DNA of 64,000 bases from positions 29,574,001 through 29,638,000 of the forward strand of contig NW_027266271.1 in assembly GCF_022045235.1 (NCBI RefSeq), written 5' to 3'. The DNA comes from Haliotis cracherodii (Eukaryota). Below the pieces are notes generated by a model, which worked only from the letters and a program-made list of their open reading frames with translations, was not told where the DNA came from and ran no database searches. Shown in pieces: positions 1,989 to 64,000 of this stretch. Numbering within the stretch: position 1 is the stretch's first letter; each line of letters opens with the position of its first letter. The position numbers and the translations under genes were made by a program.

Positions 1989-2831
1989 GGCAAAAACAAT
2001 GTCCATAATCATAAGAAATATACTACAAGCGAACGTCTATGTAGGAACCCGACTATATGTATCATAAGCATGTGTTTATTAATCATTCGAAAGTTTGAAT
2101 CTGGGCATCTTCTATTTCTGCCATTACTTGAGTTTGTTGTGATACATACATTTACTTAAACTGATACCCTTCAACAGTATGCAAGAATCAGTGAGCGGTC
2201 CCGTTGGTTTACAAACATATCTCGAAAGGTTAGTGTTCATATATTTCTGAGCGGCATCACATGTATGGGACTAGATTCATACATATTGTTGAACCTCACA
2301 TTTTAAAGATGTTATTTAAAAAAGGAATCAGAAAAATAACGCTACTGGATATGATCGAATAATGGTTTTGAAGAATAATTCACCTATTGAGTAAATAACC
2401 AGCAAATTAAGGCTGTTCATGTGTTGTACCATTTTGTGTATAAGTGAGCTTCAGCACTTCTTGTTTTCGTTTAGCTGATATCTTCCAGGAGTAGTGCTGA
2501 CCTGAATCCTGGGAATACGTGTTCCTGGGTTAACATGGTTAACGCCGCGTGTTTGTAGTTAGCAGCTTCACCCGTACCCCGTCGTCAAAATGAATACTGA
2601 CGTCATGGTCGCGTGGAGATCCCGAAGCGGTATATGCTCGGTCATTACCCAATGGTTGCCGCAAGAGACGACTAAAATTGGCATCGGGTGTTCACAGTCT
2701 GTTTGTCATTGTTCTCAATGTCAACCACTGCCCGCCTTACACTCAAGTATTACAGATTGCCGGACGTGTTGTCTGCAAGGTAATAATTACATTGGCTCGC
2801 GAGTACAATATTTATTTGTTTGGTATTCCAG

Positions 2832-3271
2832 ATATTACAGAACACCTGAACAAACGAGCTGGGTCATCCAGGGTCGCATTCTCTGCCGGTTTGACGACCA
2901 ATCTCGAGCTCCACCAGCCCGTCAACATCACCTTCGACAAAGTCTTCACCAACATCGGCGACGCCTACGACAACAACACGGGCGAGTTCACCTGCCCGGC
3001 GGCAGGGACTTACGTGTTCCAGTTTCATGGTCTGACCGAGTCTGACGGATCCATCTGGATGGAGCTGTTTAAGAATAACGCGTACGTCATCTCCGCCTAC
3101 TCCCACTCTGCCAACGACTACGGTGCTGCTTCCAACGCCATCGTCCTTCAACTTGCCGTCGGCGACGTCGTACACCTCCAAGGTCACGGGGACGTTTATC
3201 TGTACGGCGCCTCCGATGAGGTGTACGCCACGTTTAACGGCTTTCTCCTATACCCAGCTAAAAGCTCGTAA
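2832..3271 (+). CDS. C1q-domain-containing protein, terminal coding exon (globular C1q domain)
   Basis: Translation has VAFSAGL, ITFDKVFTNIGDAYDNNTGEFTCPAAGTYVFQF, ASNAIVLQLAVGDVV and TFNGFLLY. Acceptor TTCCAG ends at 2831 (alternative AG at 2840). Stop TAA 3269-3271 with AATAAA overlapping at 3271-3276. Upstream exon(s) not identified. Confidence 0.9.
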
Positions 3272-10288: not shown

Positions 10289-12337
10289 TTACTGCTGCAG
10301 ACACTGTTTCAGACGAGTCCAGAACATACACCTGTGTTCTTCTTCCCCCGGCCACTTGATGTAGGTTGTCGTCTGCAGCAGTGCGTACAGTGATGAGGTC
10401 ATGTATCGGTCGTCCATCTCCTCCAGGACAACAACAACCACGTAGAACTCTCTCTCCAGAGCACGTTTCTGGACCAAGGTCAACTCAAACTGGCACCACG
10501 GACTCTGACTGAAGTTGTTTGACAACACAAGAACAACCTTTCTGCTGTTTTCTAGATTATCCATTATGTTGTCCACAATGTAGCGTCCAGGTGTGAAGTT
10601 CCTCTCGTGGATGCATAGCTGTAGACTGTCGTCTGCTTCAACACTTGGTAGAAGATGATGTCTCACCCAGCTGGAATCTTCATCACAATAGAGAACAAAC
10701 GCGTCAAATGTGAAGGTCATCTGCACGTCTTCATTATTCCTCTTCTTGTATCGCAGCATAAACACATAATACCGGATGTGCCAGCGCCACCTATAGGCAA
10801 GGGAGATAAGAATGAGTAGCACGAGAGTGGGGACCGAGAGTCCGAAAATTATTGGGAACGTCAAGGGGGACATCCGACAGTGTTGTTCAGACACGCCAGC
10901 GTCAAATATGGAAATGGACTGCAAGTTAGGCGGGTAACCACACCTGTAGGAATCGAGATTGGAAAACTTTTCGGACCGTGAAACCCATTCTATGAACCAC
11001 AGATTTACGCACTTGCATATATAACTGTTGTATTCTAATTTTACTTTAACAAGTTGGTTTCGAAGATTTAGTGGGAACACCGATTCAGGCACCATTAGCA
11101 ACGCATTTTTTGAAACATCGATGGTTTTCAGATTCTTCAAATTATCAAACATCCCATCTTCTAACAGCAGTATGCGGTTTCCGTGAACGTCAAGCTTTTG
11201 CAACTGCAAGAGGTTGGATACCACCTTCGGTAGAAAATACAATTGGCAATGTGCTAATCTCAAGGTCTGAACAGTATTGAGATTTCCAAGAAGTGTATCA
11301 AAATAGGTATTATTTGAATCAGCCATGTCATTGTAGGACAAAGACAGTTCCAACAACCCACCACACCCTCCTAAACATGCAGGGTCCACTGTACCGATGA
11401 AAGAACCATATGCAGTAAGGCTATTCAGAATCAGCGATTTAATAACGCTGTTATTAAAAGCATAACTGTAAACATGCCCATTGGCGTTTTCGAAGACGTT
11501 CTCCAGGTAGATGACGCCAAGTCGCGGCAGCGACGTAAACGTACTGGATCCAATCGTCCCCACTCGGTTGTTCGTGATATAAAGATACTCCAGACTTGTA
11601 AGACATTCAATATATTGTCGTGGTAGGAGGTAGATGTTGTTGTCACAGACGTCGAGGTATCTGAGCTGGGAGACCTTGGTGTGATTGCTACAGAATCTGG
11701 GCAGGTGTCTTAAGTAGTTGTCACGTAACGTGATGTTTGTCAGGTGTGAGGGCACATGACCAGTGGTTGTGTACAGAGCGTTGTGCCCCATCGATAAAAC
11801 ACGCAATGGCTTAAGCAAAGAAAGTTCGGAAAAGTTTAACTTTTGTTCGATACGACAGTATTCCAGAGTGAGTGTTGTGATGTTTTTTCCAATGAGGACG
11901 TCAACGAAACCATTGAACCTTACCAGTCTGTTTTGCGATAAGTTGATGATCTGAATATTGTGGTCTAAACTTTGGAATGCGAAAACAAGGTCACGTGGAT
12001 GGATAAAATTGTATTGAAGATCGAGGTATTTTAAAGATGTAAGATTCCTGAAGGCATAACTTGATATGTTCCGGATCTTATCATTGTGAAGTATTAAACT
12101 TCTTACGAAGGTTATGTTTTTGAATGTTTCGTTGGTTATATTTCTTAGGGTGTTGTTTGAGAAGTTCAAGCAATCGCATGTGATATTTATCCTTGGGATG
12201 TAGGTGAGGTCTCTCCCTGTTATATGGCAGCATGGAACGGTCCAGTTGTCCTCAGTAGCGGCATCGAGTGCTGCATCAGACCCCGACAGAACGGAACACA
12301 CCAACAGAACCCCAGCACACAGCCTCCAAAGGGACAT
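10289..12337 (-). CDS. Toll-like receptor (single exon, single-cysteine-cluster type), 682 aa
   Basis: ATG at 12337 starts signal peptide MSLWRLCAGVLLVCSVLSGS. LxxLxLxxN repeats, LRR-CT (NSYICKC...YRCGYP), TM (FPIIFGLSVPTLVLLILISLAY), TIR motifs FDAFVLY, LCIHERNFTPG, SPWCQFEL, WP..FWTRL. Confidence 0.97.
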   Translation of the reverse strand: MSLWRLCAGVLLVCSVLSGSDAALDAATEDNWTVPCCHITGRDLTYIPRINITCDCLNFSNNTLRNITNETFKNITFVRSLILHNDKIRNISSYAFRNLTSLKYLDLQYNFIHPRDLVFAFQSLDHNIQIINLSQNRLVRFNGFVDVLIGKNITTLTLEYCRIEQKLNFSELSLLKPLRVLSMGHNALYTTTGHVPSHLTNITLRDNYLRHLPRFCSNHTKVSQLRYLDVCDNNIYLLPRQYIECLTSLEYLYITNNRVGTIGSSTFTSLPRLGVIYLENVFENANGHVYSYAFNNSVIKSLILNSLTAYGSFIGTVDPACLGGCGGLLELSLSYNDMADSNNTYFDTLLGNLNTVQTLRLAHCQLYFLPKVVSNLLQLQKLDVHGNRILLLEDGMFDNLKNLKTIDVSKNALLMVPESVFPLNLRNQLVKVKLEYNSYICKCVNLWFIEWVSRSEKFSNLDSYRCGYPPNLQSISIFDAGVSEQHCRMSPLTFPIIFGLSVPTLVLLILISLAYRWRWHIRYYVFMLRYKKRNNEDVQMTFTFDAFVLYCDEDSSWVRHHLLPSVEADDSLQLCIHERNFTPGRYIVDNIMDNLENSRKVVLVLSNNFSQSPWCQFELTLVQKRALEREFYVVVVVLEEMDDRYMTSSLYALLQTTTYIKWPGEEEHRCMFWTRLKQCLQQ

Positions 12338-12685
12338 CCTGGAGCCTTTCCACGCAGCAACCACTCTCAGTCCGCGGAAACTTTATAGTCCTGATTCTGA
12401 GAGCGTACAAGACGGAACAGTTTAGATTAGAAATTACAGAAAACCATCATGCGCTAGGCAAAGGTTGGGAAGACAAAAAATAATTAACGATAAAGTAACT
12501 TAAAGCGCTTGATGACAACCTATAAATGGGGATAGACAAATTGGCTGCCTAGATACCTTTACGTTAATTGAGGTAAAGCGAAGATCCTGTTTCTAAAGAT
12601 AATGTTGGCTGAGGCGTTGGAGAAATTCACTCACTCACTCACTCACTGAATGATGTGACCGCACATTACCTTGTCTGCTTTGGCC

Positions 12686-17894: not shown

Positions 17895-18545
17895 ACCATT
17901 TAGCATGCAAGGTCAACATCTAAGGAAACATCACTTTTCCTTCAACAAATGTCCCTGTGAAAGTAAGTTACCATTTAACATGTAAGGTCAACATCTAACG
18001 AAACATCACTTTTCCTTCAACAAATGTCCCTGTGACAGTAAGTTACCATTCAACATGTAAGGTCAACATCTAAGGAAACATCACTTTTCCTTCAACAAAT
18101 GTCCCTGTGAAAGTAAGTTACCATTCAACATGTAAGGTCAACATCTAAGGAAACATCACTTTTCCTTCAACAAATATCCCTGTGACAGTAAGTTACCATT
18201 TAACATGTAAGGTCAACATCTAACGAAACATCACTTTTCCTTCAACGAATGTCCCTGTTACAGTAAGTTACCATTCAACATGTAAGGTCAACATCTAACG
18301 AAACATCGCTTTTTCCTTCAACAAATGTCCCTGTGAAAGTAAGTTACCATTTAACATGTAAGGTCAACATCTAAGGAAACATCACTTTTCCTTCAACAAG
18401 TGTCCCTGTTACAGTAAGTTACCATTCAACATGTAAGGTCAACATCTGACGAAACATCACTTTTCCTTCAACAAATGTCCCTATGACAGTAAGTTACCAT
18501 TCAACATGTAAGGACAACCATGTACGGTCAGCATCTAAAGAAACA
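17895..18545. repeat. 75-bp tandem minisatellite in C1q intron 2
   Basis: GTAAGTTA recurs at 17963, 18038 and onward; ~8 copies, ending near the exon-2 donor. Confidence 0.93.
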
Positions 18546-18555
18546 TGACATCTAC

Positions 18556-18696
18556 CTGACACTGGGGCATGGAACACTCCGGAGGTTGGATTGTACCCCT
18601 TCCCGATGTTTGCTTCGCATTTGTCAAATATCACCGTGCTGTGAATCCCAAAGGTTTTGCCCTTGGACAGCGACGCTTTGAAGTAAACCAAACGGC
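18556..18696 (-). CDS. Secreted C1q-domain protein, exon 2
   Basis: TTTTCAG acceptor; RLVYFKASL...VIFDKCEANIGKGYNPTSGVFHAPVSG; donor G|GTAGA; phase 1/1. Confidence 0.88.
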
Positions 18697-19051
18697 CTGA
18701 AAATAAAACATGCCGATTGTACGTTTCGTTTAGGGTCAGTTTGTAAAGGACATCCATTGCGTTGGAAAGTGTATGTTGTTGTGGGTCAGTTTGTAAAGGA
18801 CATCCATTGCGTTGGAAAGTGTATGTTGTTGTTTTTACAAAAACCCTGCTGCTTTGAGTATGTAAGAGAATATTTATATGTGTCGAGGCACTTGCAGCAT
18901 ATGCGGGAATATTTACATGTACCGAGGCACTTGCAGCATGTAAAAAAGATTTTAAATGTGTCGATGCACTTCCATTATTCATTCAAACGAGACACCATGA
19001 CAGGCATTAACATGAAGTTAACACAAGTTTCAAATTCTACGAAGCACTAAC

Positions 19052-26027: not shown

Positions 26028-27486
26028 TACTGAACAACAAAAGTTCCTGTGACATTGAATAAGAGTTAATGCAAACTTCTGTTTTTTACCAAATCTGAAA
26101 TAATTTCGGTTTGCAACAGATAAAAGACTCCTGCATTAAGTGTTCAAATGGTTTAATTTGCCTTACTGACTTCAGAAAATGCGTGATTTCATAACAAACA
26201 TGAACATGCCAAAATGTCAATTTACAAATCAATAGCGTGTGCAAGCAAGCAACACATCTTCGTCTCATGGAATGGACCAGGCGTCGCACAAAGTCCTGTG
26301 GGATACTTGTCCATACCTGCTGGAGCATGTTTCGAAGTTCCTGGAGTGTCTGTTGAACACGTGGTTGACGTCGAAGGCGCCGATCCATCTCTTTCCACAT
26401 GTGCTCGATTGGTTAGAGATCAGGGGAGCGAGCCGGCCAGGGTATTTACATTCACGTTGTTTTGTTGAAGGGAATCCTGAACAAGTCGAGCAACATGAGA
26501 CCGGGCGTTGCCATGTTGAAAGGTAATGCCTGGGCCATGACGACGCAAAAATGGTAGCACAACAGGGCCGATGATCTCGTCGCGGTTGCGCTGTCCATTG
26601 AGATTTCCCTATCAAACGGGTCCTCTGTCTTGCTGTAATCCCACCCTATACCATAACGCTGCCGCCCCCGAAACGATCTTCTTCCACGACACAATGATTG
26701 ACGTAACATTCACCCCGACGTCGGAACACTTGAATCCGTCCATCGCTGTGGCTGAGGTGAAAACGAGACTCGTCAGTGAATAGAACTTGTCCCCACTGCA
26801 TGGCCGTCCAGCGTAGACGCTGTCTGCACCACCGTAGACGTGCTTGACGGTGGTTCCCTGTCAAAATGGGACGTCTGGCGGGTCTTCTGGCGACAATCCC
26901 TGCACATCTGAGGCGACGACGTATGGTCTGTGAAGATATTCGTCGAAGGCCAGGGATGATTCTTGCAGTCACTGTTGCTGGCTGGAATCGATTTCGTCGA
27001 TTATTGGTTACGCATGGCCTGCCACTCTGCGTATGGTCTCTGACTGCATTCGTATGTTGCCAACGTTGCCATAAACACCAAATGGTGTTTCTGTGGACGT
27101 TAAATTCTCTTGCAACATTACGTTGACTCGATCCTGCTTCTAGCATACCAATGGCTCGCAGACGCTCATTTTCGGACAGTCGTGGCATTTCGTAATGTTG
27201 AATAATTGCATAAGTTTGTTGTTTTTCTGAGTGGTTGTTGTCAGCACGATGCTAAACAATGCAAATGGATTCCCGTTAACGCATATGTTTTTATATCCAT
27301 TCTTGGGTAGTGAAATGCATGAGGCTTGCATAAAAGTCGACTTTTGCATGGAATGCATGCTTTAATGTAGCAGTTGCGTTTTGGTAACTTGATTCCATAC
27401 ATGTACTACAATATTGAAAACCAAACTTTATTTGTTTGAAAAATACACTAAAATATTGGTGTCACAGGAACTTTTGTTGTTGAGTA
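26028..27486 (-). mobile_element. Full-length but defective Tc1 transposon
   Basis: TIR TACTSAACAACAAAAGTTCCTGTGACA at both ends with TA target duplication. Transposase starts at ATG 27188 (paired HTH, FTDES), then frameshift, QHGNAR (catalytic D to G) and SPDL*PIEH stop. Confidence 0.93.
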
Positions 27487-35254: not shown

Positions 35255-38200
35255 TAAGAGAGAGGGAAATGCTGAAGAGGAAAGTAAAGAGAGAGTTTAA
35301 GGCTGAGAGGGGAAAGTAAAGAGAGAGGGAAGGCTGAAGAGGAAAGTAAAGAGAGAGGGATAGACTGAAGAGGAAAGTAAAGAGAGGGATAGACTGGCTG
35401 AAGGGGAAAGTAAAGAGAGAGGGATAACCTGAAGGGGAAAGTAAAGAGAGAGGGAAGGATGAAGAGGAAAGTAAAGAGAGAGAGGGATAGGCTGAAGAAA
35501 GTGAGGAGAGAGGGGAAGGCTGAAGAGAAAAGTAATGAGGGGGGAAGGCTGAAGGGGAAAGTAAAGAGGGAGGGAAAGGCTGAAGAGGAAAGTAAAGAGG
35601 GAGGGATAGGCTGAAGGGGAAAGTAAAGAGAGAGTGATAGGCTGAAGGGGAAAGTAAAGAGAGAGTGATAGGCTGAAGGGGAAAGTAAAGAGAGAGGGAT
35701 AGGCTGAAGGGGAAAGTGAAGAGGGAGGGAAAGGCTGAAGGGGAAAGTGAAGAGAGGGGAAGACTGAAGAAGAAAGTAAAGAGGGAGGGGAAGGCTGAAG
35801 AAGAAAGTAAAGAGAGAGGGGAAGGCTGAAGAAGAAAGTGAAGAGAGGGGAAGGCTGAAGAAGAAAGTGAAGAGAGAGGGGAAGGCTGAAGAGGAAAGTA
35901 AAGAGAGAGGGATAGGCTGAAGGGGAAAGTGAAGAGAGAGGGATAGGCTGAAGGGGAAAGTAAAGAGAGAGGGAAAGGCTGAAGGGGAAAGTGAAGAGGG
36001 AGGGGAAGGCTGAAGGGGAAAGTGAAGAGAGAGGGATAGGCTGAAGAGGAAAGTAAAGAGAGAGGGAAAGGCTGAAGGGGAAAGTGAAGAGGGAGGGGAA
36101 GGCTGAAGGGGAAAGTGAAGAGGGAGGGGAAGGCTGAAGGGGAAAGAAAAGAGAGAGGGATAGGACAAAGGGGAAAGTAAAGAGAGGGGGAAGGCTGAAG
36201 GGGAAAGTAAAGAGGGAGGGGAAGGCTGAAGAAGAAAGTAAAGAGAGAGGGGGAAGGCTGAAGGGGAAAGTAAAGAGAGAGGGATAGGCTGAAGGGGAAA
36301 GTGAAGAGAGAGGGGAAGGCTGAAGAGGAAAATAAAGAGAGAGGGATAGGCTGAAGGGGAAAGTGAAGAGAGAGGGATAGGCTGAAGGGGAAAGTAAAGA
36401 GGAACGGGAAAGCTGAAGGGGAAAGTGAAGAGGGACGGGAAGGCTGAAGGGGAAAGTGAAGAGAGAGGGATAGGCTGAAGAGGAAAGTAAAGAGAGAGGG
36501 AAAGGCTGAAGGGGAAAGTGAAGAGGGAGGGGAAGGCTGAAGGGGAAAGTAAAGAGGGAGGGGAAGGCTGAAGAAGAAAGTGAAGAGAGGGGAAGGCTGA
36601 AGAAGAAAGTGAAGAGAGAGGGGAAGGCTGAAGAGGAAAGTAAAGAGAGAGGGATAGGCTGAAGGGGAAAGTGAAGAGAGAGGGATAGGCTGAAGGGGAA
36701 AGTAAAGAGGGACGGGAAAGCTGAAGGGGAAAGTGAAGAGGGACGGGAAGGCTGAAGGGGAAAGTGAAGAGAGAGGGATAGGCTGAAGAGGAAAGTAAAG
36801 AGAGAGGGAAAGGCTGAAGGGGAAAGTGAAGAGGGAGGGGAAGGCTGAAGGGGAAAGTGAAGAGGGAGGGGAAGGCTGAAGGGGAAAGAAAAGAGAGAGG
36901 GATAGGACAAAGGGGAAAGTAAAGAGAGGGGGAAGGCTGAAGGGGAAAGTAAAGAGAGGGGGAAGGTTGAAGGGGAAAGTAAAGAGGGAGGAAAGGCTGA
37001 AGGGGAAAGTAAAGAGAGGGGAAGGCTGAAGGGGAAAGTAAAGAGAGAGGGATAGGCTGAAGGGGAAAGTGAAGAGAGAGGGGAAGGCCTAAGACGAAAG
37101 TGAAGAGAGTGGGATAGGCTGAAGGGGAAGGTAAAGAGAGAGGGAAAGGCTGAAGGGGAAAGTAAAGAGAGAGGGAAAGGCTGAAGGGGAAAGTAAAGAG
37201 AGAGGGAAAGGCTGAAGGGGAAAGTAAAGAGAGGGGAAGGCTGAAGGGGAAAGTAAAGAGAGAGGGAAAGGCTGAAGGGGAAAGTGAAGAGGGAGGGGAA
37301 GGCTGAAGGGGAAAGTAAAGAGAGAGGGATAGGCTGAAGGGGGAAGTGAAGAGGGAAGGGAAGGCTGAAGGGGAAAGTAAAGAGAGAGGGGAAGGCTGAA
37401 GGGGAAAGTGAAGAGGGAGGGGAAGGCTGAAGGGGAAAGTGAAGAGAGAGGGATAGGCTGAAGGGGAAAGTGAAGAGGGAGGGGAAGGCTGAAGGGGAAA
37501 GTAAAGAGAGAGGGAAAGGCTGAAGGGGAAAGTAAAGAGAGGGGAAGGCTGAAGGGGAAAGTAAAGAGAGAGGGAAAGGCTGAAGGGGAAAGTGAAGAGA
37601 GGGAAAGGCTGAAGGGGAAAGTAAAGAGAGAGGGGAAGGCTGAAGAGGAAAGTAAAGAGAGAGGGATAGGCTGAAGAGGAAAGTAAAGAGAGAGGGATAG
37701 GCTGAAGAGGAAAGTAAAGAGAGAGGGAAAGGCTGAAGGGGAAAGTAAAGAGAGAGGGAAAGGCTGAAGGGGAAAGTAAAGAGAGAGGGGAAGGCTGAAG
37801 AGGAAAGTAAAGAGAGAGGGATAGGCTGAAGAGGAAAGTAAAGAGAGAGGGATAGGCTGAAGGGGAAAGTAAAGAGAGAGGGAAAGGCTGAAGGGGAAAG
37901 TAAAGAGAGAGGGAAAGGCTGAAGGGGAAAGTAAAGAGAGAGGGGAAGGCTGAAGAGGAAAGTAAAGAGAGAGGGATAGGCTGAAGAGGAAAGTAAAGAG
38001 AGAGGGATAGGCTGAAGGGGAAAGTAAAGAGAGAGGGAAAGGCTGAAGGGGAAAGTAAAGAGAGAGGGAAAGGCTGAAGAGGAAAGTAAAGAGAGAGGGA
38101 TAGGCTGAAGAGGAAAGTAAAGAGAGAGAGGGATAGGCTGAAGAGGAAAGTAAAGAGAGAGGGAAAGGCTGAAGGGGAAAGTAAAGAGAGAGGGAAAGGC

Positions 38201-38935
38201 TGAAGGGGAAAGTAAAGAGAGAGGGGAAGGCTGAAGAGGAAAGTAAAGAGAGAGGGATTGGCTGAAGAGGAAAGTAAAGAGAGAGGGAAAGGCTGAAGGG
38301 GAAAGTAAAGAGAGAGGGAAAGGCTGAAGGGGAAAGTAAAGAGAGAGGGAAAGGCTGAAGGGGAAAGTAAAGAGAGGGGAAGGCTGAAGGGGAAAGTAAA
38401 GAGAGAGGGAAAGGCTGAAGGGGAAAGTAAAGAGGGAGGGGAAGGCTGAAGGGGAAAATAAAGAGAGAGGGATAGGCTGAAGGGGAAAGTAAAGAGAGAG
38501 GGAAAGGCTGAAGGGGGAAAAAGAGAGGGATAGGCTGAAGGGGAAAGTAAAGAGAGAGGGGAAGGCTGAAGAGGAAAGTAAAGAGAGAGGGATAGGCTGA
38601 AGAGGAAAGTAAAGAGAGGGGAAGGCTGAAGGGGAAAGTGAAGAGGGAGGGGAATGCTGAAGAGGAAAGTAAAGAGAGAGGGAAAGGCTGAAGAGGAAAG
38701 TAAAGAGAGAGGGGTAGGCTGAAGGGGAAAGTAAAGAGAGAGGGAAAGGCTGAAGGGGAAAGTGAAGAGGGAGGGATAGGCTGAAGGGGAAAGTTAAGAG
38801 GGAGGGATAGGCTGAAGAGGAAAGTGAAGAGAGGGATATGCTGAAGGGGAAAGTGAAGAGGGAGGGGAAGGCTGAAGGGGAAAGTAAAGAGAGAGGGAAA
38901 GGCTGAAGGGGAATGTAAAGAGAGAGGGGTAATGC
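35255..38935. repeat. Purine-rich ~31-bp satellite in DSD intron 3
   Basis: GGCTGAAGGGGAAAGTAAAGAGAGAGGGAAA variants; ~742-bp higher-order repeat. Confidence 0.97.
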
Positions 38936-49815: not shown

Positions 49816-50344
49816 GTATACCTTTGTGTGTATAGAGATTGAGTCCAGAGTATCATCTGCTTGTCCGTTTGAGGGAGAGCAATAACGTTGATATTGTTGT
49901 GCACATTTTTAGTTTGTTTCTTCGTATACTCTAATGGGCTTTACGAAGCATACCCAGAACCATGACAGCTGTATGTGCACCAGTTGCATTTTTATACGTT
50001 TATGTATTACTTATGACTTGACCTTCAAAGTGATATTGACCTTCAAATTTATCTCTTAGTTGGTTGGACAAATCATTTATTTCAGGTAAACCTTTAATTA
50101 TATCCGATATAGAAAAGGTATTTGCAAACGGTGATATGTATGTTTTGTATAAAGTTATTTTTAAATGAAATTAACAATGGGAATAAATTGACAAAATGGG
50201 GTGGTGGGATAACACATAACCAAATTCTTCGAACATCATAAAAGTGAATATGAACATTGCCATCTCGTCATAAGACGTGTCGGCTCATTATGAGATATCA
50301 AATGGCTTGGTTGATAATACTAATAATTTATAATAGAAATGTGT

Positions 50345-51960
50345 AATGTGTATAGAAATGGTTTATTTTTCAAACTATGGAAGGGTGGTATCAAGGGACG
50401 AGTATTTAGAGTTCTTAAAAATATGTATAATTCTGTCAAATCTTGTGTTTCATTGGACTGTGGTCTTACAGATTTCTTTGATTGTATGTCAGGTGTTAGA
50501 CAGGGATGTCAGCTGTCTCCACTTTTATTCTCATTTTTTATTAATGACATTGTCGAGGAGTTAGAGTGTGATGCTCATGGTGTTACCTTACATACTCTAG
50601 AACTGTTCATCTTGTTGTTCGCCGATGACATTATTTTAATGGACGTGCCAGTTGTTGGTCTTCAAAAGCGACTTGATAAACTATCTTTATATTGTGATAA
50701 ATGGAAACTTACTATTAATACTGATGAAAGTAAAGTTGTCATTTTTAGAAATGGCGGAAAACTTAGAAATCAGGAAAAATTTAGGATAGGAAATGATGAT
50801 GTCACCACAGTATCGAATTATAAGTATCTCGGTGTCCAGTTATCCTCTTCTGGCTCGTGGAGTTTAACTCAGAAGACATTAGCCTAGCAAGCTTTGAAGG
50901 TAATTCAAATCCTCCAGTCTAGACTAGGTAAATTCTCATATCTGCCACCAGATGTCTGTTTCAAAATTTTTGATGTAAAAGTGTTACCAATTTTGACATA
51001 TGCATCGGAAGTTTGGGGATTCCATGCATCACCTGACATTGAAAATGTGCACAGTAAATTCTGTAAATTGACTTTGGGTTTGAGTAGAAACACACCAAAT
51101 AGCTTTGTAAAATCTGTCTTGATGAGAAACTCCGTCAAAGTGTCACATTATTTAAAAATTATAAAATTTTGGCTTCGATTATTGATACAAGATAATAATT
51201 TGATTTTGAAAAAACATATAGTTTTCAATATAAAAGGGCAGAGAATGGCAACGCTTGCTGGGCACTCAAGGTTAAATCATTGCTGTTTTCCTACGGATTT
51301 GCAGAGGTATGGCTACAACAGGGTGTTGGTAGATCTGACTTATTCTTACATCAGTTTAGGCAAAGGAGCGTAGACATTGAAAATCAAGTGTTGCACAATA
51401 ATTGTGAATCTTGTTCTAAGCTTGAATTGTTCTCTGCAGTAAGGGATAAATTTTCATATAATACCTGGATTCGATTAATTGATGTAACATTATTTCGAAC
51501 TAATATCTTGAATTTTATCGGATCCAATCATCGTCTTATGGTTGAAACAGGCAGATATCATAATATACCAAGACATGAACGTTTCTGTCCCCTCTGTGTT
51601 GTAAGTGCTATCGAAGATGAGTTCCACTTTTGTATGGTGTGTCCGTTCTATCTTGATCTGCGGTCTAATCTCATACCCAATTATTATCACATGTTTCCAA
51701 GTCGTGAGAAAATGTTCTTATTATTCAGCTCGACTAATCAAAGTATTTGCAACAATTTAGCAAAATATGTATTTCCTGCTGGTAAGAAACGAAATTCTAT
51801 TTTCAAGGGAATACCTGTGTCATATAATTAACTCCAATATTAACAGTTTGAATACTGCATTGTAAATCTTATAATTCAGCGCTCTGTCATATTTGTATGC
51901 CATCATGCTCTGCACGTGTATAATGGGCCGGTGGCCTCATTACCTGAATAAAAGCATCTA
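50345..51960 (+). mobile_element. 5'-truncated LINE (CR1/L2-group-like) ORF2 with RT, disrupted
   Basis: GVRQGCQLSPLLF, LLFADD, YKYLG, C-terminal CPLC..EDEFHF..C; stop and frameshift; 3' GGGCC-GGT-GGCC plus AATAAA. Confidence 0.92.
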
Positions 51961-52800: not shown

Positions 52801-53149
52801 CAGCAGGGAAGAAACCAGAGATTAGTGCCTGTCAAATTTTGACAGATGCTGCTCTGATCGATGGATGTTCAACACAAGAGATACTCGGATGCCATGCTTG
52901 TTTATTGGGTTCTACCAAAACTGAAATCACTTCCTGTTATCAAGCTGGTACAAAACAAGGAATAAAGAATTGTACAAACGAATACGAGTCATAGATATTA
53001 GATCATCCCTTCTTTTAGAGATATTGCACACGTCTCTGAGGTATGTAACTGATTACTAAGAAACAAAGGCAAAAACATAAATTAGATAAATTATCATGAC
53101 TATACTAATTAAATAACAAATAAGAATACTTTTTACTTTGGAACTTAAA

Positions 53150-54400
53150 ACGAAGTCAGACAGCTTACGTCCTTGTCAAGCAAGGGGGTTGGTGTGTTCC
53201 CATCTGCACTACTCAACACTTTCCCTATCTATGGTAAATTAGTCGCACTGATAGTCTGCATGCTTCACTGGCGGCTGGGTTTCCCTGGAAGAGTGTTGCA
53301 GCACATTCTGGCTGGAACTGCTGTCTTATCAACACCTGATGTTATGCTTCCGTTTTTGGCATCGGGTTGGTGATTTATAGTTTGGAAGAAGGATGAATTC
53401 CTTGTAATGCTTCTTTCTTCATTTTCCATTGTGTCCATTACACCTTTCTTCGATGAAACTGTGAGTGGTGTAAGGGCGTAGCAGCTTTCCTGTTCATATT
53501 CACCAGAAGGAAACGGTTCACAAAAGTCAATGCTGATATTTTGCCATGGTCGTTCAGGCAGAACAGACATGATGTGTTTCTCAATGATCTGTGTGGTTAG
53601 CTGGTTGACATGGTATGCATTTGGATAGTATTCTTCTACCATGTAGTCGATCCCAAGAAACCACACCTTTTCTGAGCAGAGGCTTGGTTTTTGATGATCC
53701 CTAATGTCCCTGGTGAGCGATCAACAACGCGTTGTTGAGATTTCCAGGAACTACAAGTTTACTCCCACAAAGCTCCTCCCTGATGCGATAACAGGATCTG
53801 TTGACTGGACTCTCCTTGATCCTTCGGTGACTGCACTCATCACCTGCAGGAGCGACTCATGTGTTTGAATTCCGAGAGCGTCATAGCCTTTGGTATAGCT
53901 TGTGATGCCAGAAGTTGACAAATCTTTCAGCAAAAGATGTTGACTGTTGCTATTGCCGGGTGGCGGGACATGTAATCTGTGGGATTGTCCTTACCAGGAT
54001 GATACTTCACAATGAAGGCCTACAATGACATGCCAGTGTTCATTTGATTTTGGATTGTTGAAGATATGCTCTGGAGGCTCATGATTAGTCACTAGGGTAA
54101 ATCAGGTTCCAAAGAGATATAGATGAAAGTTTTCACATGCCCAGACATGGGTGGCGATTTCAAGGATTGATAGGATTCTTCATAAAAAATGTTCACATCA
54201 GCTCCGCATTCGACCATGGCTGATATCAGGGTGTCCATTATTTGTGAACAGCTGTATGGGGATGACTATCATGCTTATACTGACACGCAGATGTTTCACA
54301 TACTACCTTTGGGGCAGGGCAGGCTCAATCAAGGGGATAACTTCCACCACAAAAATAGCATGTGCTTATGACACATGGTTTTTCCATTGACTTTTCACCT
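53150..54400 (-). mobile_element. Degraded Ty3/Gypsy pol remnant (RT/RNase H/integrase)
   Basis: VWACENFHLYLFG, FIVKYHPGKDNPTDYMSRH, AHQGH*G, PERPWQNISIDF; many deletions. Confidence 0.8.
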
Positions 54401-55164
54401 GTGTTTTACTCCTGTAGAGCCGTCTAGAGTGGCGTCAAATTGCTAGAACAGTGGCGCAGACATTCTGTTGATAAAGGTGTCTGTTTATCCTCGTGGCCAG
54501 TGTAAGATTGTGACAGATGCTGGTCTGATTGATGGATGTTCAACACAAGAGATACTTGGATGTTTATTAGGTTCTACCAAACCTGGAATCACTTCCTGTT
54601 GTGAAACTGGAACAAAATATGGAATACAAGATTGTACAGACAAAATACAATTTGAGGATATTACAGTGACCCTTTAAGGATCAGTTTATACAAAAGTGGA
54701 GGGAAGCTGTTGAGTCGAGTCCAAAGGGTGTCTTCTATAAACACTATAAGCAAATCCCAAATTATCAGTTACTCCCCTAAAGCAAGTACATGCCGATATA
54801 AAAAAATCGTACTTAATTTCGTACTTCAAATCAGTTGAGAGTGGGCAATGGCAGAATATACCAAGAGAACTTTTGATATACAAGAATGAATCTTGCTTGT
54901 TTCTCCGCGATCCTGATGTGTCACCGTTTAAGGTTCATTCTATTACAAGTATTTTAGGAGACAAGATCAAAGGCACCACCCAGCATATATTAGTCAACAG
55001 ACAAGGTCGGTCTCACCCCTTTTGTCAGATACCTTAACATCACAAATGTCATGGTTGAGTTGTCCCATTAACCAATACTTGTCATCCAAGTGTTAAAATG
55101 GATTAGTTCCGTCATACCCCATCTGTCGGACACCTCACGAGAATATAAGACTCATAATATATGA

Positions 55165-57948: not shown

Positions 57949-58452
57949 GGAGTCGTTGGGGGTAGATGACCCTCAAAACAGTTTACATGCTCTGCCTACG
58001 TAACACGATCTACGTTTTCAGAGTTTTTTCTTTTGCGGTTCAGTATAGAAAAAATTAAATTTTCATAACAAAATACAATATATGCAATTGTTTAATTTTA
58101 TGTCTTCACTAAATATGCTGAAAATGCTTTGACCATGTTAACTCTGTAATATATGTACTATGCCTTGGAGAGCAGAAAATACAATTTAATTGTTAAGTTA
58201 TCATGTCTAGTGATGTTTCATGTCAAATTTCATATTTTTATTGACCAAGTTTGTTATACCTGTTCATTCACCTGAATTAGCTGGATGGATGTGTTTGTTT
58301 GAAAGCGCATTACACTTGATAAATCTTTTTTTACACTATGAATCATAAACAACTACTATTCTGATCCTTTTTAAAAACTCTGAAAACGTAGATCGTGTTA
58401 CGTAGGCAGAGCATGTAAACAGTTCTGAGGGTCATCTACCCCCAACGACTCC
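57949..58452. mobile_element. MITE with ~80-bp terminal inverted repeats
   Basis: GGAGTCGTTGGGGGTAGATGACCCTC...GATCTACGTTTTCAGAGTTTTT and its reverse complement at 58373-58452. Confidence 0.88.
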
Positions 58453-59991: not shown

Positions 59992-60400
59992 ACAGTGCAC
60001 ACTGGTGCCATTACTACCCCGACACTAGTAGTAACACTGGCAACAGCTGACACCAAGTGGAATCAATATTGTAATGACAAACAAGTAAGGTGTAAAGTAG
60101 TATGTGCACTTACTTGGCTTGCTTGATCTCAACTGTCACCATATGGAATCCCCAGCCCGCTGATTGGCTGGGAGCTGACTGGGTCCTCTCGCCTCTCTGG
60201 CATGGGTCACGGCACTCGGATAGCTACAACTGGTCGTCCGAACATCACTGATCACCACACTCTCCTCCATTTACAGGAACCCTTGAAGGGATGGGACCCA
60301 TTCCCCCGCAGATACCGATCAGGGATTTTTCCATGGCAGTTGGGCTTCTTGCACATCTTTTGCTGACATTTGGCTCCCAAGGATAACCTGGGACACAGTG

Positions 60401-60691
60401 ACCTTGGAAGATGTTTCCATTAGGTCTTCTGACCAGGCTTAACCTGGTCTCTGCTATCTGCCCAGCAAATCTACTGGGCCTGCTTCCTTCCACTTCTGCT
60501 CCCTGTGACTCCAAGGCTCTACCGTATCCAGTTATAACCTGGGTCACAATCACCTTGGAAGATGTTTCCATTCCAGAAAAAGGTCTTCTGACCAGGCTTA
60601 ACCTGGTCTCTGCTATCTGCCCAGCAAATCTACTGGGCCTGCTTCCCACCACTTCTGCTCCCTGTGACTCGAAGGCTCTACCGTATCCAGT
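60401..60691. repeat. Two direct repeats of ~135-140 bp overlapping the TatD stop codon
   Basis: ACCTTGGAAGATGTTTCCATT...GCTCTACCGTATCCAGT at 60401-60532 and 60552-60691. Confidence 0.9.
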
Positions 60692-62693
60692 AGATAGCCC
60701 TGGCATTACTGGTGGTGTAATGTAGGACTTCTCCCACTGAGATGCCTCTAGCCCGGGCGACGATGACGGCAAGGTCTCTAATGTGGTGAGGAGTATTCCT
60801 CCATCCTCCACCTGCAGCCAGGTGGGGCGAGTCTGTTTCGAGCAGCAGCCTCTTCAAAGGGACCGCCCGCAACCCTTCCAGTTGCAGCCAGTCAAAAGTT
60901 TCCACGTTGGTGTTAAAACCAAAATAGGTGTTCGGGAAGTCTTGGTGCCAAGCTGCGACGGCGGAAACTTTGCCTGTGAAGTTGTATACATGGACCACTT
61001 GAGTTGGTGGTCTGGCTGTTCTCATCAGCTGGATTCCATGGCGATGGACATCCGAGCCATAGGGATCCCGACTTGTACCTCTTAGTTCCAGGACAACCAC
61101 CTGGTCCATCAATGGAAGCCGAAGAACCTTCTTCAAAACTTGTTCTTGCTGGGCCCAAGTATGTGGAGGCGTGGTCCTATCCAGCCCTACCAGACCCAGG
61201 GCCCGGACATTCGAAGAAGAGGTCAACAGATCAACCATCCTTCCCAGTTCTGTATGGCCAAAATCTCTGGCATGTTTAGGATGGATCCCGATTGCTGTCT
61301 TCCAGGAAGGATTATCTTCGATTTGATGGGGATAGGTGGCAGGGTGACAGTAGAATATGACCCCTCCCTCATACTCCACACTAGCCTGTACCTGGTCTTG
61401 GGCCCGAGGATGGTTGCATAATTCTTCGACCAAGGTGTCTCCGCTCGGCCGGTCATGGTGACAGTGTGAATCAATTGCCTCCGGTAAATTCAGCGAGGAA
61501 TGCTGCGCAGCATCCACCGGGAACTCTTCATCCGAGCTTTCTTGACAGGACCGAGTAGGAACCAGGTCAGCAGTTCGCCTCTCCACAGGACTTGTGGACG
61601 CCTTTACAGCACGGACATTAATTCTCTCCAGCTGCCGCCGAACCCTTTCTCCGACCGGCTCCAACAGCGTCCGAAACTGATTCAATTGATGCCTATCCAA
61701 GTCCACCAGCAGTGCCACCAGGACCCTCCAGTGCACCAGGCATGCCAGTGAGTTCATCGGCTGCAACTGGAATTGGGCTGGCACACGCCAACCCTGGCTT
61801 CTGCACATCCTTCTCAAGTTTTCAGAAGCCTCTTGGGTCACTGTACTGTCTGCTGGTATTCGACGGCTGGTGTTCAGATGGTGCTGCAGTTCTTTCAGAG
61901 TGGATCCAGGGCCAAGGATCATGCCAGACAGACAGTTGAGGGCTCTCATGCGATCTTCCACCACCTCCTTGGTCAGGGGTTGGATTCGCTCTTCAAAATA
62001 AATAGGCAAGTGGGCCTGTTGCACATGCATTTTTAATTTTCTTGACCTTGTTGTGCATCCTGGCAGTGGGCACACTGACTTCCTGTCGCCCCTCCCCCAG
62101 TGAGAGCGCTTGGAAGCTGCTGCAGACTTTGTCCGTGGTGGAACTCTTCTTCTGACTTCCGGTCCAGACTTCAAGGATGGAGAGTGCCTCCAGGTTGGTG
62201 GGTTGTTGCGGCCCACTGCCCCAGCTTGGACATACGGCACTTCCGGCAACACTCTTCGCTGCACCTTCTGGACGTGTTCAGTGGATTCTTGAGATGAACT
62301 CAGCCTCCCCCGTTTCCTTGATTGCCTTTTCTCAGCTGGAAACAGTAAACCAGTGACTCCTCTTCCTCTGGGGGTATCTCTGACTGTCCTCCCTTTGGAG
62401 CTGGATATCCTTGTCCTGTCAAAGGATTCACTTCTCTGACGGACTTCTAACCGACATGGTTCAGGAGTCTTCCTGGACTGATATGACTCCGGCAAGGGGA
62501 CATTGTCCACCATTAAATCCCGACTGGTATCGCTGCTGGATCTTGTCAAGGTCAGTTCACTAGTCTTCCACACAGGGTACCTCATCCTCCTTCCCACCCA
62601 TTTCACACCGGGGAACTCCATAGGGGGAAACTTGCTCATTTCTCTTTCAGAACTCATTTTAGTGATTGTAGTCTGATCCACACGCTGATATTC
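60678..62693 (-). CDS. TatD-family (TATDN2-like) nuclease-fold protein with low-complexity N-terminus and C2H2-like finger; probably a large 3' exon
   Basis: IDSHCH, IGIHP, GLVGLD, LLLETDSP, NTP, TTSNARAIY motifs; CPLPGC..HVQQAH; in-frame TTTTACAG acceptor before 62693; first ATG within the ORF at MSSER. Confidence 0.8.
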   Translation of the reverse strand, partial: EYQRVDQTTITKMSSEREMSKFPPMEFPGVKWVGRRMRYPVWKTSELTLTRSSSDTSRDLMVDNVPLPESYQSRKTPEPCRLEVRQRSESFDRTRISSSKGRTVRDTPRGRGVTGLLFPAEKRQSRKRGRLSSSQESTEHVQKVQRRVLPEVPYVQAGAVGRNNPPTWRHSPSLKSGPEVRRRVPPRTKSAAASKRSHWGRGDRKSVCPLPGCTTRSRKLKMHVQQAHLPIYFEERIQPLTKEVVEDRMRALNCLSGMILGPGSTLKELQHHLNTSRRIPADSTVTQEASENLRRMCRSQGWRVPAQFQLQPMNSLACLVHWRVLVALLVDLDRHQLNQFRTLLEPVGERVRRQLERINVRAVKASTSPVERRTADLVPTRSCQESSDEEFPVDAAQHSSLNLPEAIDSHCHHDRPSGDTLVEELCNHPRAQDQVQASVEYEGGVIFYCHPATYPHQIEDNPSWKTAIGIHPKHARDFGHTELGRMVDLLTSSSNVRALGLVGLDRTTPPHTWAQQEQVLKKVLRLPLMDQVVVLELRGTSRDPYGSDVHRHGIQLMRTARPPTQVVHVYNFTGKVSAVAAWHQDFPNTYFGFNTNVETFDWLQLEGLRAVPLKRLLLETDSPHLAAGGGWRNTPHHIRDLAVIVARARGISVGEVLHYTTSNARAIYWIR

Positions 62694-62709
62694 CTGTAAA
62701 AGAAATATA

Positions 62710-64000
62710 CCTTACTTAGAACAACCCTTCCGCAGCAGCCTCCCCTTACTTAGGACCCTTCCGCTGCAGCCTCCCCTTACTTAGAACAACCCTTCCGCAG
62801 CAGCCTCCCCTTACTTAGAACCCTTCCGCAGCAGCCTCCCCTTACTTAGTACCCTTCCGCAGCAGCCTCCCCTTACTTAGAACAACCCTTCGGCAGCAGC
62901 CTCCCCTTACTTAGAACAACCCTTCCGCAGCAACCTCCCCTTACTTAGTACCCTTCCGCAGCAGCCTCCCCTTACGTAGAACAACCCTTCGACAGCAGCC
63001 TCCCCTTACTTAGTACCCTTCCGCAGCAGCCTCCCCTTACTTAGAACCCTTCCGCAGCAGCCTCCCCTTACTTAGAACCCTTCCGCAGCAGCCTCCCCTT
63101 ACTTAGAACCCTTCCGCAGCAGCCTCCCCTTACTTAGAACCCTTCCGCAGCAGCCTCCCCTTACTTAGAACCCTTCGACAGCAGCCTCCCCTTACTTAGA
63201 ACAACCCTTCCGCAGCAGCCTCCCCTTACTTAGAACCCTTCCGCAGCAGCCTCCCCTTACTTAGTACCCTTCCGCAGCAGCCTCCCCTTACTTAGAACCC
63301 TTCCGCAGCAGCCTCCCCTTACTTAGAACCCTTCCGCAGCAGCCTCCCCTTACTTAGTACCCTTCCGCAGCAGCCTCCCCTTACTTAGAACAACCCTTCC
63401 GCAGCAGCCTCCCCTTACTTAGTACCCTTCCGCAGCAGCCTCCCCTTACGTAGAACAACCCTTCCGCAGCAGCCTCCCCTTACTTAGTACCCTTCCGCAG
63501 CAGCCTCCCCTTACTTAGAACCCTTCCGCAGCAGCCTCCCCTTACGTAGAACAACCCTTCGGCAGCAGCCTCCCCTTACTTAGAACAACCCTTCCGCAGC
63601 AGCCTCCCCTTACTTAGTACCCTTCCGCAGCAGCCTCCCCTTACTTAGTACCCTTCCGCAGCAGCCTCCCCTTACTTAGAACCCTTCCGCAGCAGCCTCC
63701 CCTTACTTAGAACAACCCTTCCGCAGCAGCCTCCCCTTACTTAGAACCCTTCGACAGCAGCCTCCCCTTACTTAGAACAACCCTTCCGCAGCAGCCTCCC
63801 CTTACTTAGTACCCTTCCGCAGCAGCCTCCCCTTACTTAGAACAACCCTTCCGCAGCAGCCTCCCCTTACGTAGAACAACCCTTCCGCAGCAGCCTCCCC
63901 TTACTTAGTACCCTTCCGCAGCAGCCTCCCCTTACTTAGTACCCTTCTGCAGCAGCCTCCCCTTACTTAGAACAACCCTTCCGCAGCAGCCTCCCCTTAC
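62710..64000. repeat. 31/34-bp tandem array, runs off the window end
   Basis: CCCTTCCGCAGCAGCCTCCCCTTACTTAG(T/A)A with or without an extra 3 bp (AAC); highly homogeneous. Confidence 0.97.

Follow-up and report, generated by a model that had tools for sequence, protein, structure and literature searches.

The window analysed here is a 64,000-nt stretch of the abalone Haliotis cracherodii (NW_027266271.1); coordinates above 64000 are counted on past its end. Close to that end, on the minus strand, lies an open reading frame (ORF) of 677 amino acids (aa) from stop to stop (60678-62711), or 659 aa from the ATG at 62657, which we show to be the third gene (ORF3) of an old Ty3/Gypsy insertion from which gag and pol have been deleted. 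Around it, a 5′ long terminal repeat (LTR), primer-binding site (PBS), leader, integrase scrap, polypurine tract (PPT) and 3′ LTR follow one another in the proper order and on the proper strand, as a single old insertion would leave them. The ORF and the remnants of the element are as follows.

60678-62657 (−): ORF3 of a Ty3/Gypsy element, 659 aa, recognised by Pfam, motifs and predicted structure
ORF3, N-terminus: basic, low-complexity region (43 Lys plus Arg in 195 aa)
ORF3, residues C196, C201, H211 and H216: C2H2-like finger, C-x4-C-x9-H-x4-H
ORF3, after the finger: helical domain, acidic linker and TatD barrel (about residues 393-656), in this order
60251-60263 (−): PPT, directly before the 3′ LTR, in the same place and with nearly the same letters as in an intact element
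59994-60250 (−): 3′ LTR remnant, 66-72% like the LTR of an intact element
about 64446-64560 (−): C-terminal integrase scrap with 2 stops in 38 codons, beyond the window and next to a tandem array
about 68300-68800 (−): leader of about 500 bases, beyond the window
about 68800-68817 (−): PBS-like site, beyond the window
68823-69023 (−), G000:C8:29642830-29643023: 5′ LTR remnant, beyond the window, found by a genome search with the 3′ LTR

The 5′ LTR lies 8.8 kb upstream of its 3′ partner on the same strand and is 79-81% alike, with a Kimura two-parameter divergence of 0.22 ± 0.04 over 200 columns and four indels of 1-2 bases. The two are each other's nearest long matches, no copy in the genome being more than 80% alike, and at the loci with the next-best LTR matches (C45 and C67) no ORF3 or pol match was found. 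The parent subfamily has evidently left no close copy. Searches by tblastn gave no gag or pol match below E 0.3 in 84 kb, so that only the integrase scrap remains of these genes. The target-site duplication is unreadable because the outer LTR ends are eroded or hit by repeats; a common SINE-like (short interspersed element) repeat abuts the far end of the 3′ LTR remnant.

A preliminary description of this DNA had reported an intact, GC-richer ORF with a TatD fold, and this is borne out: the frame is open, its GC content is 0.52-0.54 per bin compared to 0.32-0.40 in the adjoining 5 kb, and its C-terminal part matches Pfam TatD_DNase (E 2.8e-24). An AlphaFold2 model of residues 183-659 (pLDDT 78.6) found human TATDN3 (2y1h, E 3.4e-12) as its top match in Foldseek, with bacterial YcfH/TatD also among the best. 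The C2H2-like finger and helical domain said to precede the fold were likewise seen, by motif and in the model, and the Cys and His ligands of the finger are conserved in nearly all relatives that cover it. For the finger-helical part no Pfam family scored below E 0.05, a sequence-atlas search returned only unnamed eukaryote clusters (0.89-0.91), and no J-domain was detected in the ORF3 family by Pfam scan. The region singled out at that stage covers the ORF and leaves out the informative parts, namely the two LTRs and the downstream exon described below.

Where such an ORF comes from is indicated by its relatives. In the 1.18-Gb genome, with 68 candidates scored, the TatD part finds 55 matches, of which the best after the ORF itself is 58-64% identical; the homologs that bear a name come from Haliotis rufescens and H. 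cracherodii. We analysed 30 kb around each of six relatives with long open frames, and in all six gag and pol lie directly upstream of ORF3 on the same strand. Pfam identified a gag with a CCHC knuckle (2 of 2) and a pol of the layout protease-reverse transcriptase-RNase H-integrase-PHD; two of the three wholly scanned pol frames show the full order from protease to integrase, and the third has reverse transcriptase, RNase H and integrase. Four of the six carry LTR pairs of 258-281 bases that are 98.9-100% alike, together with a PBS-like site, a PPT and target duplications of 4 bases, and no LTR pair was found in the 30 kb around each of the other two. Gag and pol upstream and nearly identical LTR pairs thus identify TatD as the ORF3 of a young Ty3/Gypsy lineage, where it occupies the place of env. 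The young whole elements (L033-L035, L039-L041, L045-L047 and L048-L050) represent three subfamilies with a PHD finger at the integrase end, and in one TatD-ORF3 subfamily gag begins with a helix-hairpin-helix motif. The ORF3 of intact elements keeps HxH, GE(V/I)GLD, xHxRG, HxH(S/C)F and ETD, and its ratio of non-synonymous to synonymous change (dN/dS) is 0.09-0.22 in three of four close pairs and 0.98 in the youngest pair. The idea of cargo of an unclassified mobile element therefore holds for the mobile origin; the element itself can be classified as Ty3/Gypsy, with TatD in the ORF3 position.

In the protein tree, the window and H. rufescens proteins pair with each other and nest with two element copies of the H. 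cracherodii genome (support 1.0). This tree used 74 of 173 aligned rows, was rooted on two non-element TatD proteins and included no full host TATDN2. Synonymous sites are saturated between the ORF and its nearest element relatives.

The locus is shared between species and appears to be spliced. Of 21 sequencing runs listed, 17, from organisms A-E, hold part of the stretch; a run from organism F contained none of the searched words of the stretch, which is no proof of absence. Seven runs were aligned (X6 twice, giving eight alignments), five of them RNA-like (X6, X13, X14, X15 and X16) and two DNA (X8 and X11), an assignment that is guessed, no run being recorded as RNA. A single orthologous locus is common to organisms A-E, with the same downstream exon in A and D, and a search with shorter proteins yielded no further ortholog. 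The splice features are as follows.

60114/60113 (−): splice donor in the 3′ LTR
53000-54606 (−), start exact and end approximate: downstream exon, reached from the LTR donor across a 5.5-kb intron
62694-62709 (−): splice acceptor, a pyrimidine tract plus CAG, 36 bases upstream of the ATG

Contigs of four of the five RNA-like runs (X6, X13, X14 and X15) end their alignment at 60114, a GT donor within the 3′ LTR, and extend past it for 500-1300 unaligned letters, while X16 has no cover there. Both DNA runs continue straight through 60114, and the GT-AG joint is absent from both. The loose ends of X6 and X15 share the same 30 letters, whose single genome match (54577-54606) stands behind a canonical acceptor. 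The downstream exon has no long open frame and lies in a decayed remnant of an unrelated LTR element (52830-54610, minus strand), which has scraps resembling RNase H and integrase between two similar ends and supplies both the exon and AATAAA signals. Towards the 5′ end, a contig of one run (X14) departs from the genome at the acceptor upstream of the ATG and continues for 147 unaligned letters, a length that would fit a first exon from the 5′ LTR with a donor near 68940; X6 continues unspliced, and X13 and X15 end just short of the acceptor. Both copies of the nearest intact subfamily have the LTR donor too, two other subfamilies lack it at this position, and a similar acceptor precedes ORF3 in the intact elements read; the window copy thus likely makes use of ORF3 splice signals that it inherited from the element. 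PMC5408684 states that an ORF3 is typically a unit of its own, expressed from a spliced message.

The metal site of the window allele is damaged. It retains DSHCH, GIHP and ETD and carries GLVGLD, VLELRG and VYNF at three altered motifs, as had been read from the sequence before; the TatD fold, HxH and ETD are thus present, and the bridging Glu and two His of the second metal are absent. Mapped by motif, the three altered residues correspond to Glu112, His149 and His174 of TATDN1, which PMC10085689 gives as the ZnB ligands; there, E112A is the one substitution that clearly reduces both activities, and His174 alone has little effect. Ligand site 489 is Val in organisms A-D (seven of the eight run alignments, X16 having no cover) and Leu, the L of GLVGLD, in the window allele alone, whereas site 524 shows no variant among those listed. 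Because every allele read lacks the corresponding Glu together with one or both His, the protein is predicted to be unable to cut.

A profile search of 1.84 billion representatives yielded 869 proteins at E 1e-30 or better, and ligands were counted in the best 150 of these plus our own rows, with 17 gapped rows set aside. All six ligands are kept in 132 of the 154 ungapped relatives, and at least two are missing in 16 (P0014/P0165/P0166, P0094, P0109, P0122 and others), which fall at about eight separate places in the tree and include proteins of Ostrea edulis, Lingula anatina and Lytechinus variegatus.

The frame itself has stayed open. Neutral drift since the insertion would be expected to leave 8.5 stops (5.4-11.6) and about 20 frameshifting indels, and ORF3 shows none; the integrase scrap has two stops, with p 0.003. 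Where contigs cover the ORF, their net difference in length is divisible by three in 9 of 12 spans, namely +30 and −39 (X13), +36 (X8, which also has the same −39), 0 (X14), −3 and +3 (X15), and +21, +12 and 0 (X16). Of 62 columns conserved in the family 55 are kept, with 7 changes seen compared to 12.8 expected (p 0.04).

On balance, we regard the ORF as probably, though by no means securely, a host-retained pseudo-nuclease: a spliced gene for a non-cutting, nucleic-acid-binding TatD protein under weak constraint. Selection keeping a pseudo-nuclease open had already been proposed, and the lost ligands and the uninterrupted frame make it likely. Intact elements would make ORF3 from a spliced message that runs from the LTR donor to the acceptor behind pol, and the window copy would still use the donor and acceptor signals it inherited. 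With its LTRs 0.22 apart, the insertion has presumably not been mobile since they drifted, so that only host-level selection could have kept 659 codons without stops or frameshifts. Without the bridging Glu and one or two His, the second metal would not be held and no cutting would occur; binding of DNA or RNA could nevertheless persist through the finger, the helical domain, the basic tail and the barrel. The most plausible use would be to compete, as binder or decoy, with the active ORF3 nuclease that the still-young relatives encode, and constraint on single residues would by now be weak. Taken alone, the step to a binder or decoy against active relatives carries low confidence.

Several observations weigh against retention by selection. 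Among the 44 ORF differences listed, which come from 40 of 183 plus 40 of 203 rows, 32 are non-synonymous, 12 are synonymous and none is a stop; dN/dS is 0.9-1.1, and neutrality is not rejected. The comparison with H. rufescens shows 60 changed residues in 646 at about 4% DNA difference, and coding divergence is no lower than that of LTR and untranslated region (UTR), with 3.8 versus 3.0% and 4.9 versus 3.5%. The p value of 0.04 for conserved columns rises to 0.37 at the low end of the LTR clock, and the three remaining contig spans, +17 (X11), −7 (X16) and −1 (X6), overlap untranslated DNA and could hide frameshifts. No contig bridges the ORF and the 3′ junction, and the stop codon lies 564 bases before this junction, which would invite nonsense-mediated decay, the usual fate of messages whose stop is far upstream of the last junction. 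At the metal site, position 558 is Tyr, Tyr, His and Leu in organisms A-D and hence not an ancestral change, and because it varies the excess of ligand losses weakens to p 0.04-0.07. The H. rufescens protein additionally lacks the second His of HxH as well as 13 residues after ETD, two of which are conserved prolines; this barrel loss occurs in two organisms. Together with the Val/Leu difference at site 489, the variation at site 558 and the further loss in H. rufescens point to a metal site that died stepwise and is still eroding. The “rewired” active site of the preliminary description is not upheld, since the pattern is one of stepwise loss without a new constellation. That description had also allowed for a young pseudogene, with substitutions private to this copy and dN/dS near 1. 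The ratio is indeed near 1 among species, yet two of the three substituted sites are common to species, so that no young private pseudogene is at hand.

These points bear most directly on the main rival explanation, that the gene was once constrained and is now dying, its role having been lost around the species split, with a drifting frame transcribed via leftover LTR signals. We hold this unlikely but well worth considering. It would account for a dN/dS of about 1, for further active-site losses on short branches, for the 13-residue deletion in the barrel of two organisms and for the distance from the stop to the last junction, and at 2.5% drift about two stops are expected per lineage. Against it, indels in the ORF are in frame on several lineages (21, 39, 12, 6 and 3 bases, and compensated pairs), whereas those beside it mostly are not (1, 7, 4 and 1 versus one of 3), and neither the 44 listed differences nor the H. 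rufescens protein contain a stop. A ratio near 1 could also arise in a fast-evolving defence factor, if purifying and positive selection averaged out through conflict with active elements. The open frame with its high amino-acid turnover (10% of residues differ from H. rufescens in the barrel and 6% in the finger-helical part), the 9 of 10 listed differences within organism A that are non-synonymous, and the presence of young active relatives would all fit; the difference between the domains, however, is not significant (p 0.15), and the variants listed are a subset. We therefore rate this explanation as improbable.

Marginally less probable again is an earlier loss of the ligands, in a parent subfamily that went on transposing with its ORF3 already dead, combined with LTR remnants that stem from different insertions; the copy would then be younger than its clock, and little selection would be required for its open frame. 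Saturated synonymous sites make ligand loss undatable relative to the insertion, and the target duplication is unreadable. But the two LTRs are mutual nearest long matches with no copy above 80%, both nearest element relatives retain the ligands, site 558 still varies among species, and the in-frame indels across species would need explaining. Descent from host TATDN2, as an ortholog or a retrocopy, is hardly credible, although the ORF belongs to the HxH class and public annotations name its relatives “putative deoxyribonuclease TATDN2”. LTRs, PBS, PPT and integrase scrap surround the ORF, it nests among element ORF3s, and exon-sized pieces of host TatD genes lie on other contigs (C56, C34 and probably C20). 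An ortholog or retrocopy is thus refuted by the element relics and the tree position, and the single-copy state that was to have signalled a TATDN2 ortholog does exist at the level of the subfamily without having that meaning.

A second orphan frame of the finger-helical-TatD type, 454 aa long, was found on C2 (L023:1492-2853, minus strand; G000:C2:27298500-27299861). Five of its six ligands are lost, an acceptor-like site precedes the finger, and no gag, pol or LTR pair was found in 30 kb. Over 440 columns it differs from a Logan protein at 14 positions and by one gap of 9 residues (95% identity), and by sequence looks like an older, better conserved capture. A wider reading would join these cases: a Gypsy lineage of marine invertebrates with a zinc-finger-TatD ORF3, widespread and apparently unpublished, would have been captured repeatedly by hosts, which would have allowed the metal site to decay and retained the binder as a dominant-negative brake on the element, twice in abalone (the window locus and the C2 orphan) and perhaps also in oyster, brachiopod and sea urchin, where ligand-less relatives occur. 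As a joint claim we put this forward as a speculation that is rather unlikely to hold in full.

Two repeat structures flank the ORF.

62710-64000, no strand, whole array 62723-64430: 31/34-bp minisatellite of about 53 copies, running 430 bases past the window
60383-60691 (−): tandem duplication of the start of the element's 3′ UTR, period 151/159 bases, copies 91% alike

The very uniform 31/34-bp array beside the ORF, noted before, is confirmed. It lies in the intron, is lineage-specific and outside the element, and is missing from both DNA runs of other organisms (X8 and X11), which have different letters after 62700; arrays with a 31-bp period but a different sequence lie at 35256-38928 and 10 kb further upstream. 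An element end or a spacer array was considered and ruled out, as the units are uniform without unique spacers, the array is absent from X8 and X11, and such arrays are locally common. The two direct repeats downstream, described as hairpin-bearing and about 140 bp long, are real, but their period is 151-159 bases and only one copy folds clearly: each has two short hairpins, of which those of one copy clearly beat shuffled sequences (z −5.2 versus −1.4). Similar hairpins follow the ORF3 stop of one intact element (z −4.25), and the hairpin region was covered by an alignment (A2) that aligned the stems poorly. With no folding in the 3′ UTR at C45 (z −0.55), conservation of the hairpins is no more than suggestive. 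Run X16 has a single copy of the 3′ UTR repeat (a skip of 159). The repeats are thus a late duplication, and since the array is absent from X8 and X11 and the duplication from X16, neither frames the system, as had been assumed, nor is part of the mechanism. A 202-aa frame overlapping the duplication (60245-60853, minus strand) has no Pfam match. In G000 no B/C flank motif turned up near the locus, the one hit being unrelated and with 1 mismatch.

The surrounding DNA, previously called decayed, is so only in part. At 10289-12382 (−) an open single-exon frame of 697 aa has leucine-rich repeats together with a membrane stretch and, as its tail, a TIR-like part; by eye we take it to be a Toll-like receptor. 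C1q-domain-like frames presumably lie at 2594-3271 (+) and 18494-18982 (−), the second apparently decayed. Broken frames that we take by eye to be reverse transcriptases of long interspersed elements (LINEs) and a piece of Tc1-like transposase are found at 50327-51831 (+) and 26646-27251 (−), and 80-base inverted repeats, 98% complementary and 344 bases apart, form a structure like a miniature inverted-repeat transposable element at 57949-58452.

The capture of LTR-element genes by hosts is well known. What is new here is the gastropod Gypsy family with a TatD ORF3, and an ORF3 that is orphan, spliced, ligand-less and found across species, beside which stands the second orphan on C2. Many mollusc gene models called “TATDN2-like” or “YcfH-like” are thereby tied to retrotransposons rather than to an expansion of host genes, and the locus offers a dated, multi-species case of a transposon's accessory nuclease becoming a spliced host pseudo-enzyme with ligand loss still under way. 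Should the protein act on those relatives that are young and active, a retroelement would be restricted by means of a nuclease of its own; should the frame simply be drifting, the locus would still be a clean case of LTR splice signals turning an ORF3 into an exon. The literature searched, which lacks most subscription journals, Repbase notes and supplements, contained no paper on TatD in LTR retrotransposons; in PMC6962438, TATDN2 occurs only in a figure legend.

The closest parallel is provided by the bdelloid rotifer LTR retrotransposons Juno and Vesta, whose ORF3s are enzymatic, a DEDDy exonuclease and a GDSL esterase, according to PMC5408684, the main text of which does not mention TatD. 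As in these elements, the abalone family has a non-envelope enzyme gene after pol, which in one bdelloid case is also a nuclease. The bdelloid ORF3s as described there keep their catalytic residues and sit in whole elements, whereas the window copy does neither, and the abalone ORF3 differs in having a TatD fold with a finger and a helical domain. With the class II (HxH) TatD nucleases TATDN2, TATDN3, YcfH and YjjV it shares the TIM barrel, HxH, GxHP and ETD (PMC10085689). Unlike them, the window ORF lacks the bridging Glu and one or two His ligands, is a single coding exon of retrotransposon origin and has extra N-terminal domains. Host genes derived from LTR elements include PNMA, PEG10 and Arc from gag, and syncytins and Fv1-type restriction factors from env or gag. 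Like these, the locus described here is one old insertion that keeps one open gene amid decay and reuses LTR and splice signals; in contrast to them, the gene kept is an accessory nuclease turned pseudo-enzyme, under far weaker constraint and with a function that is only predicted.

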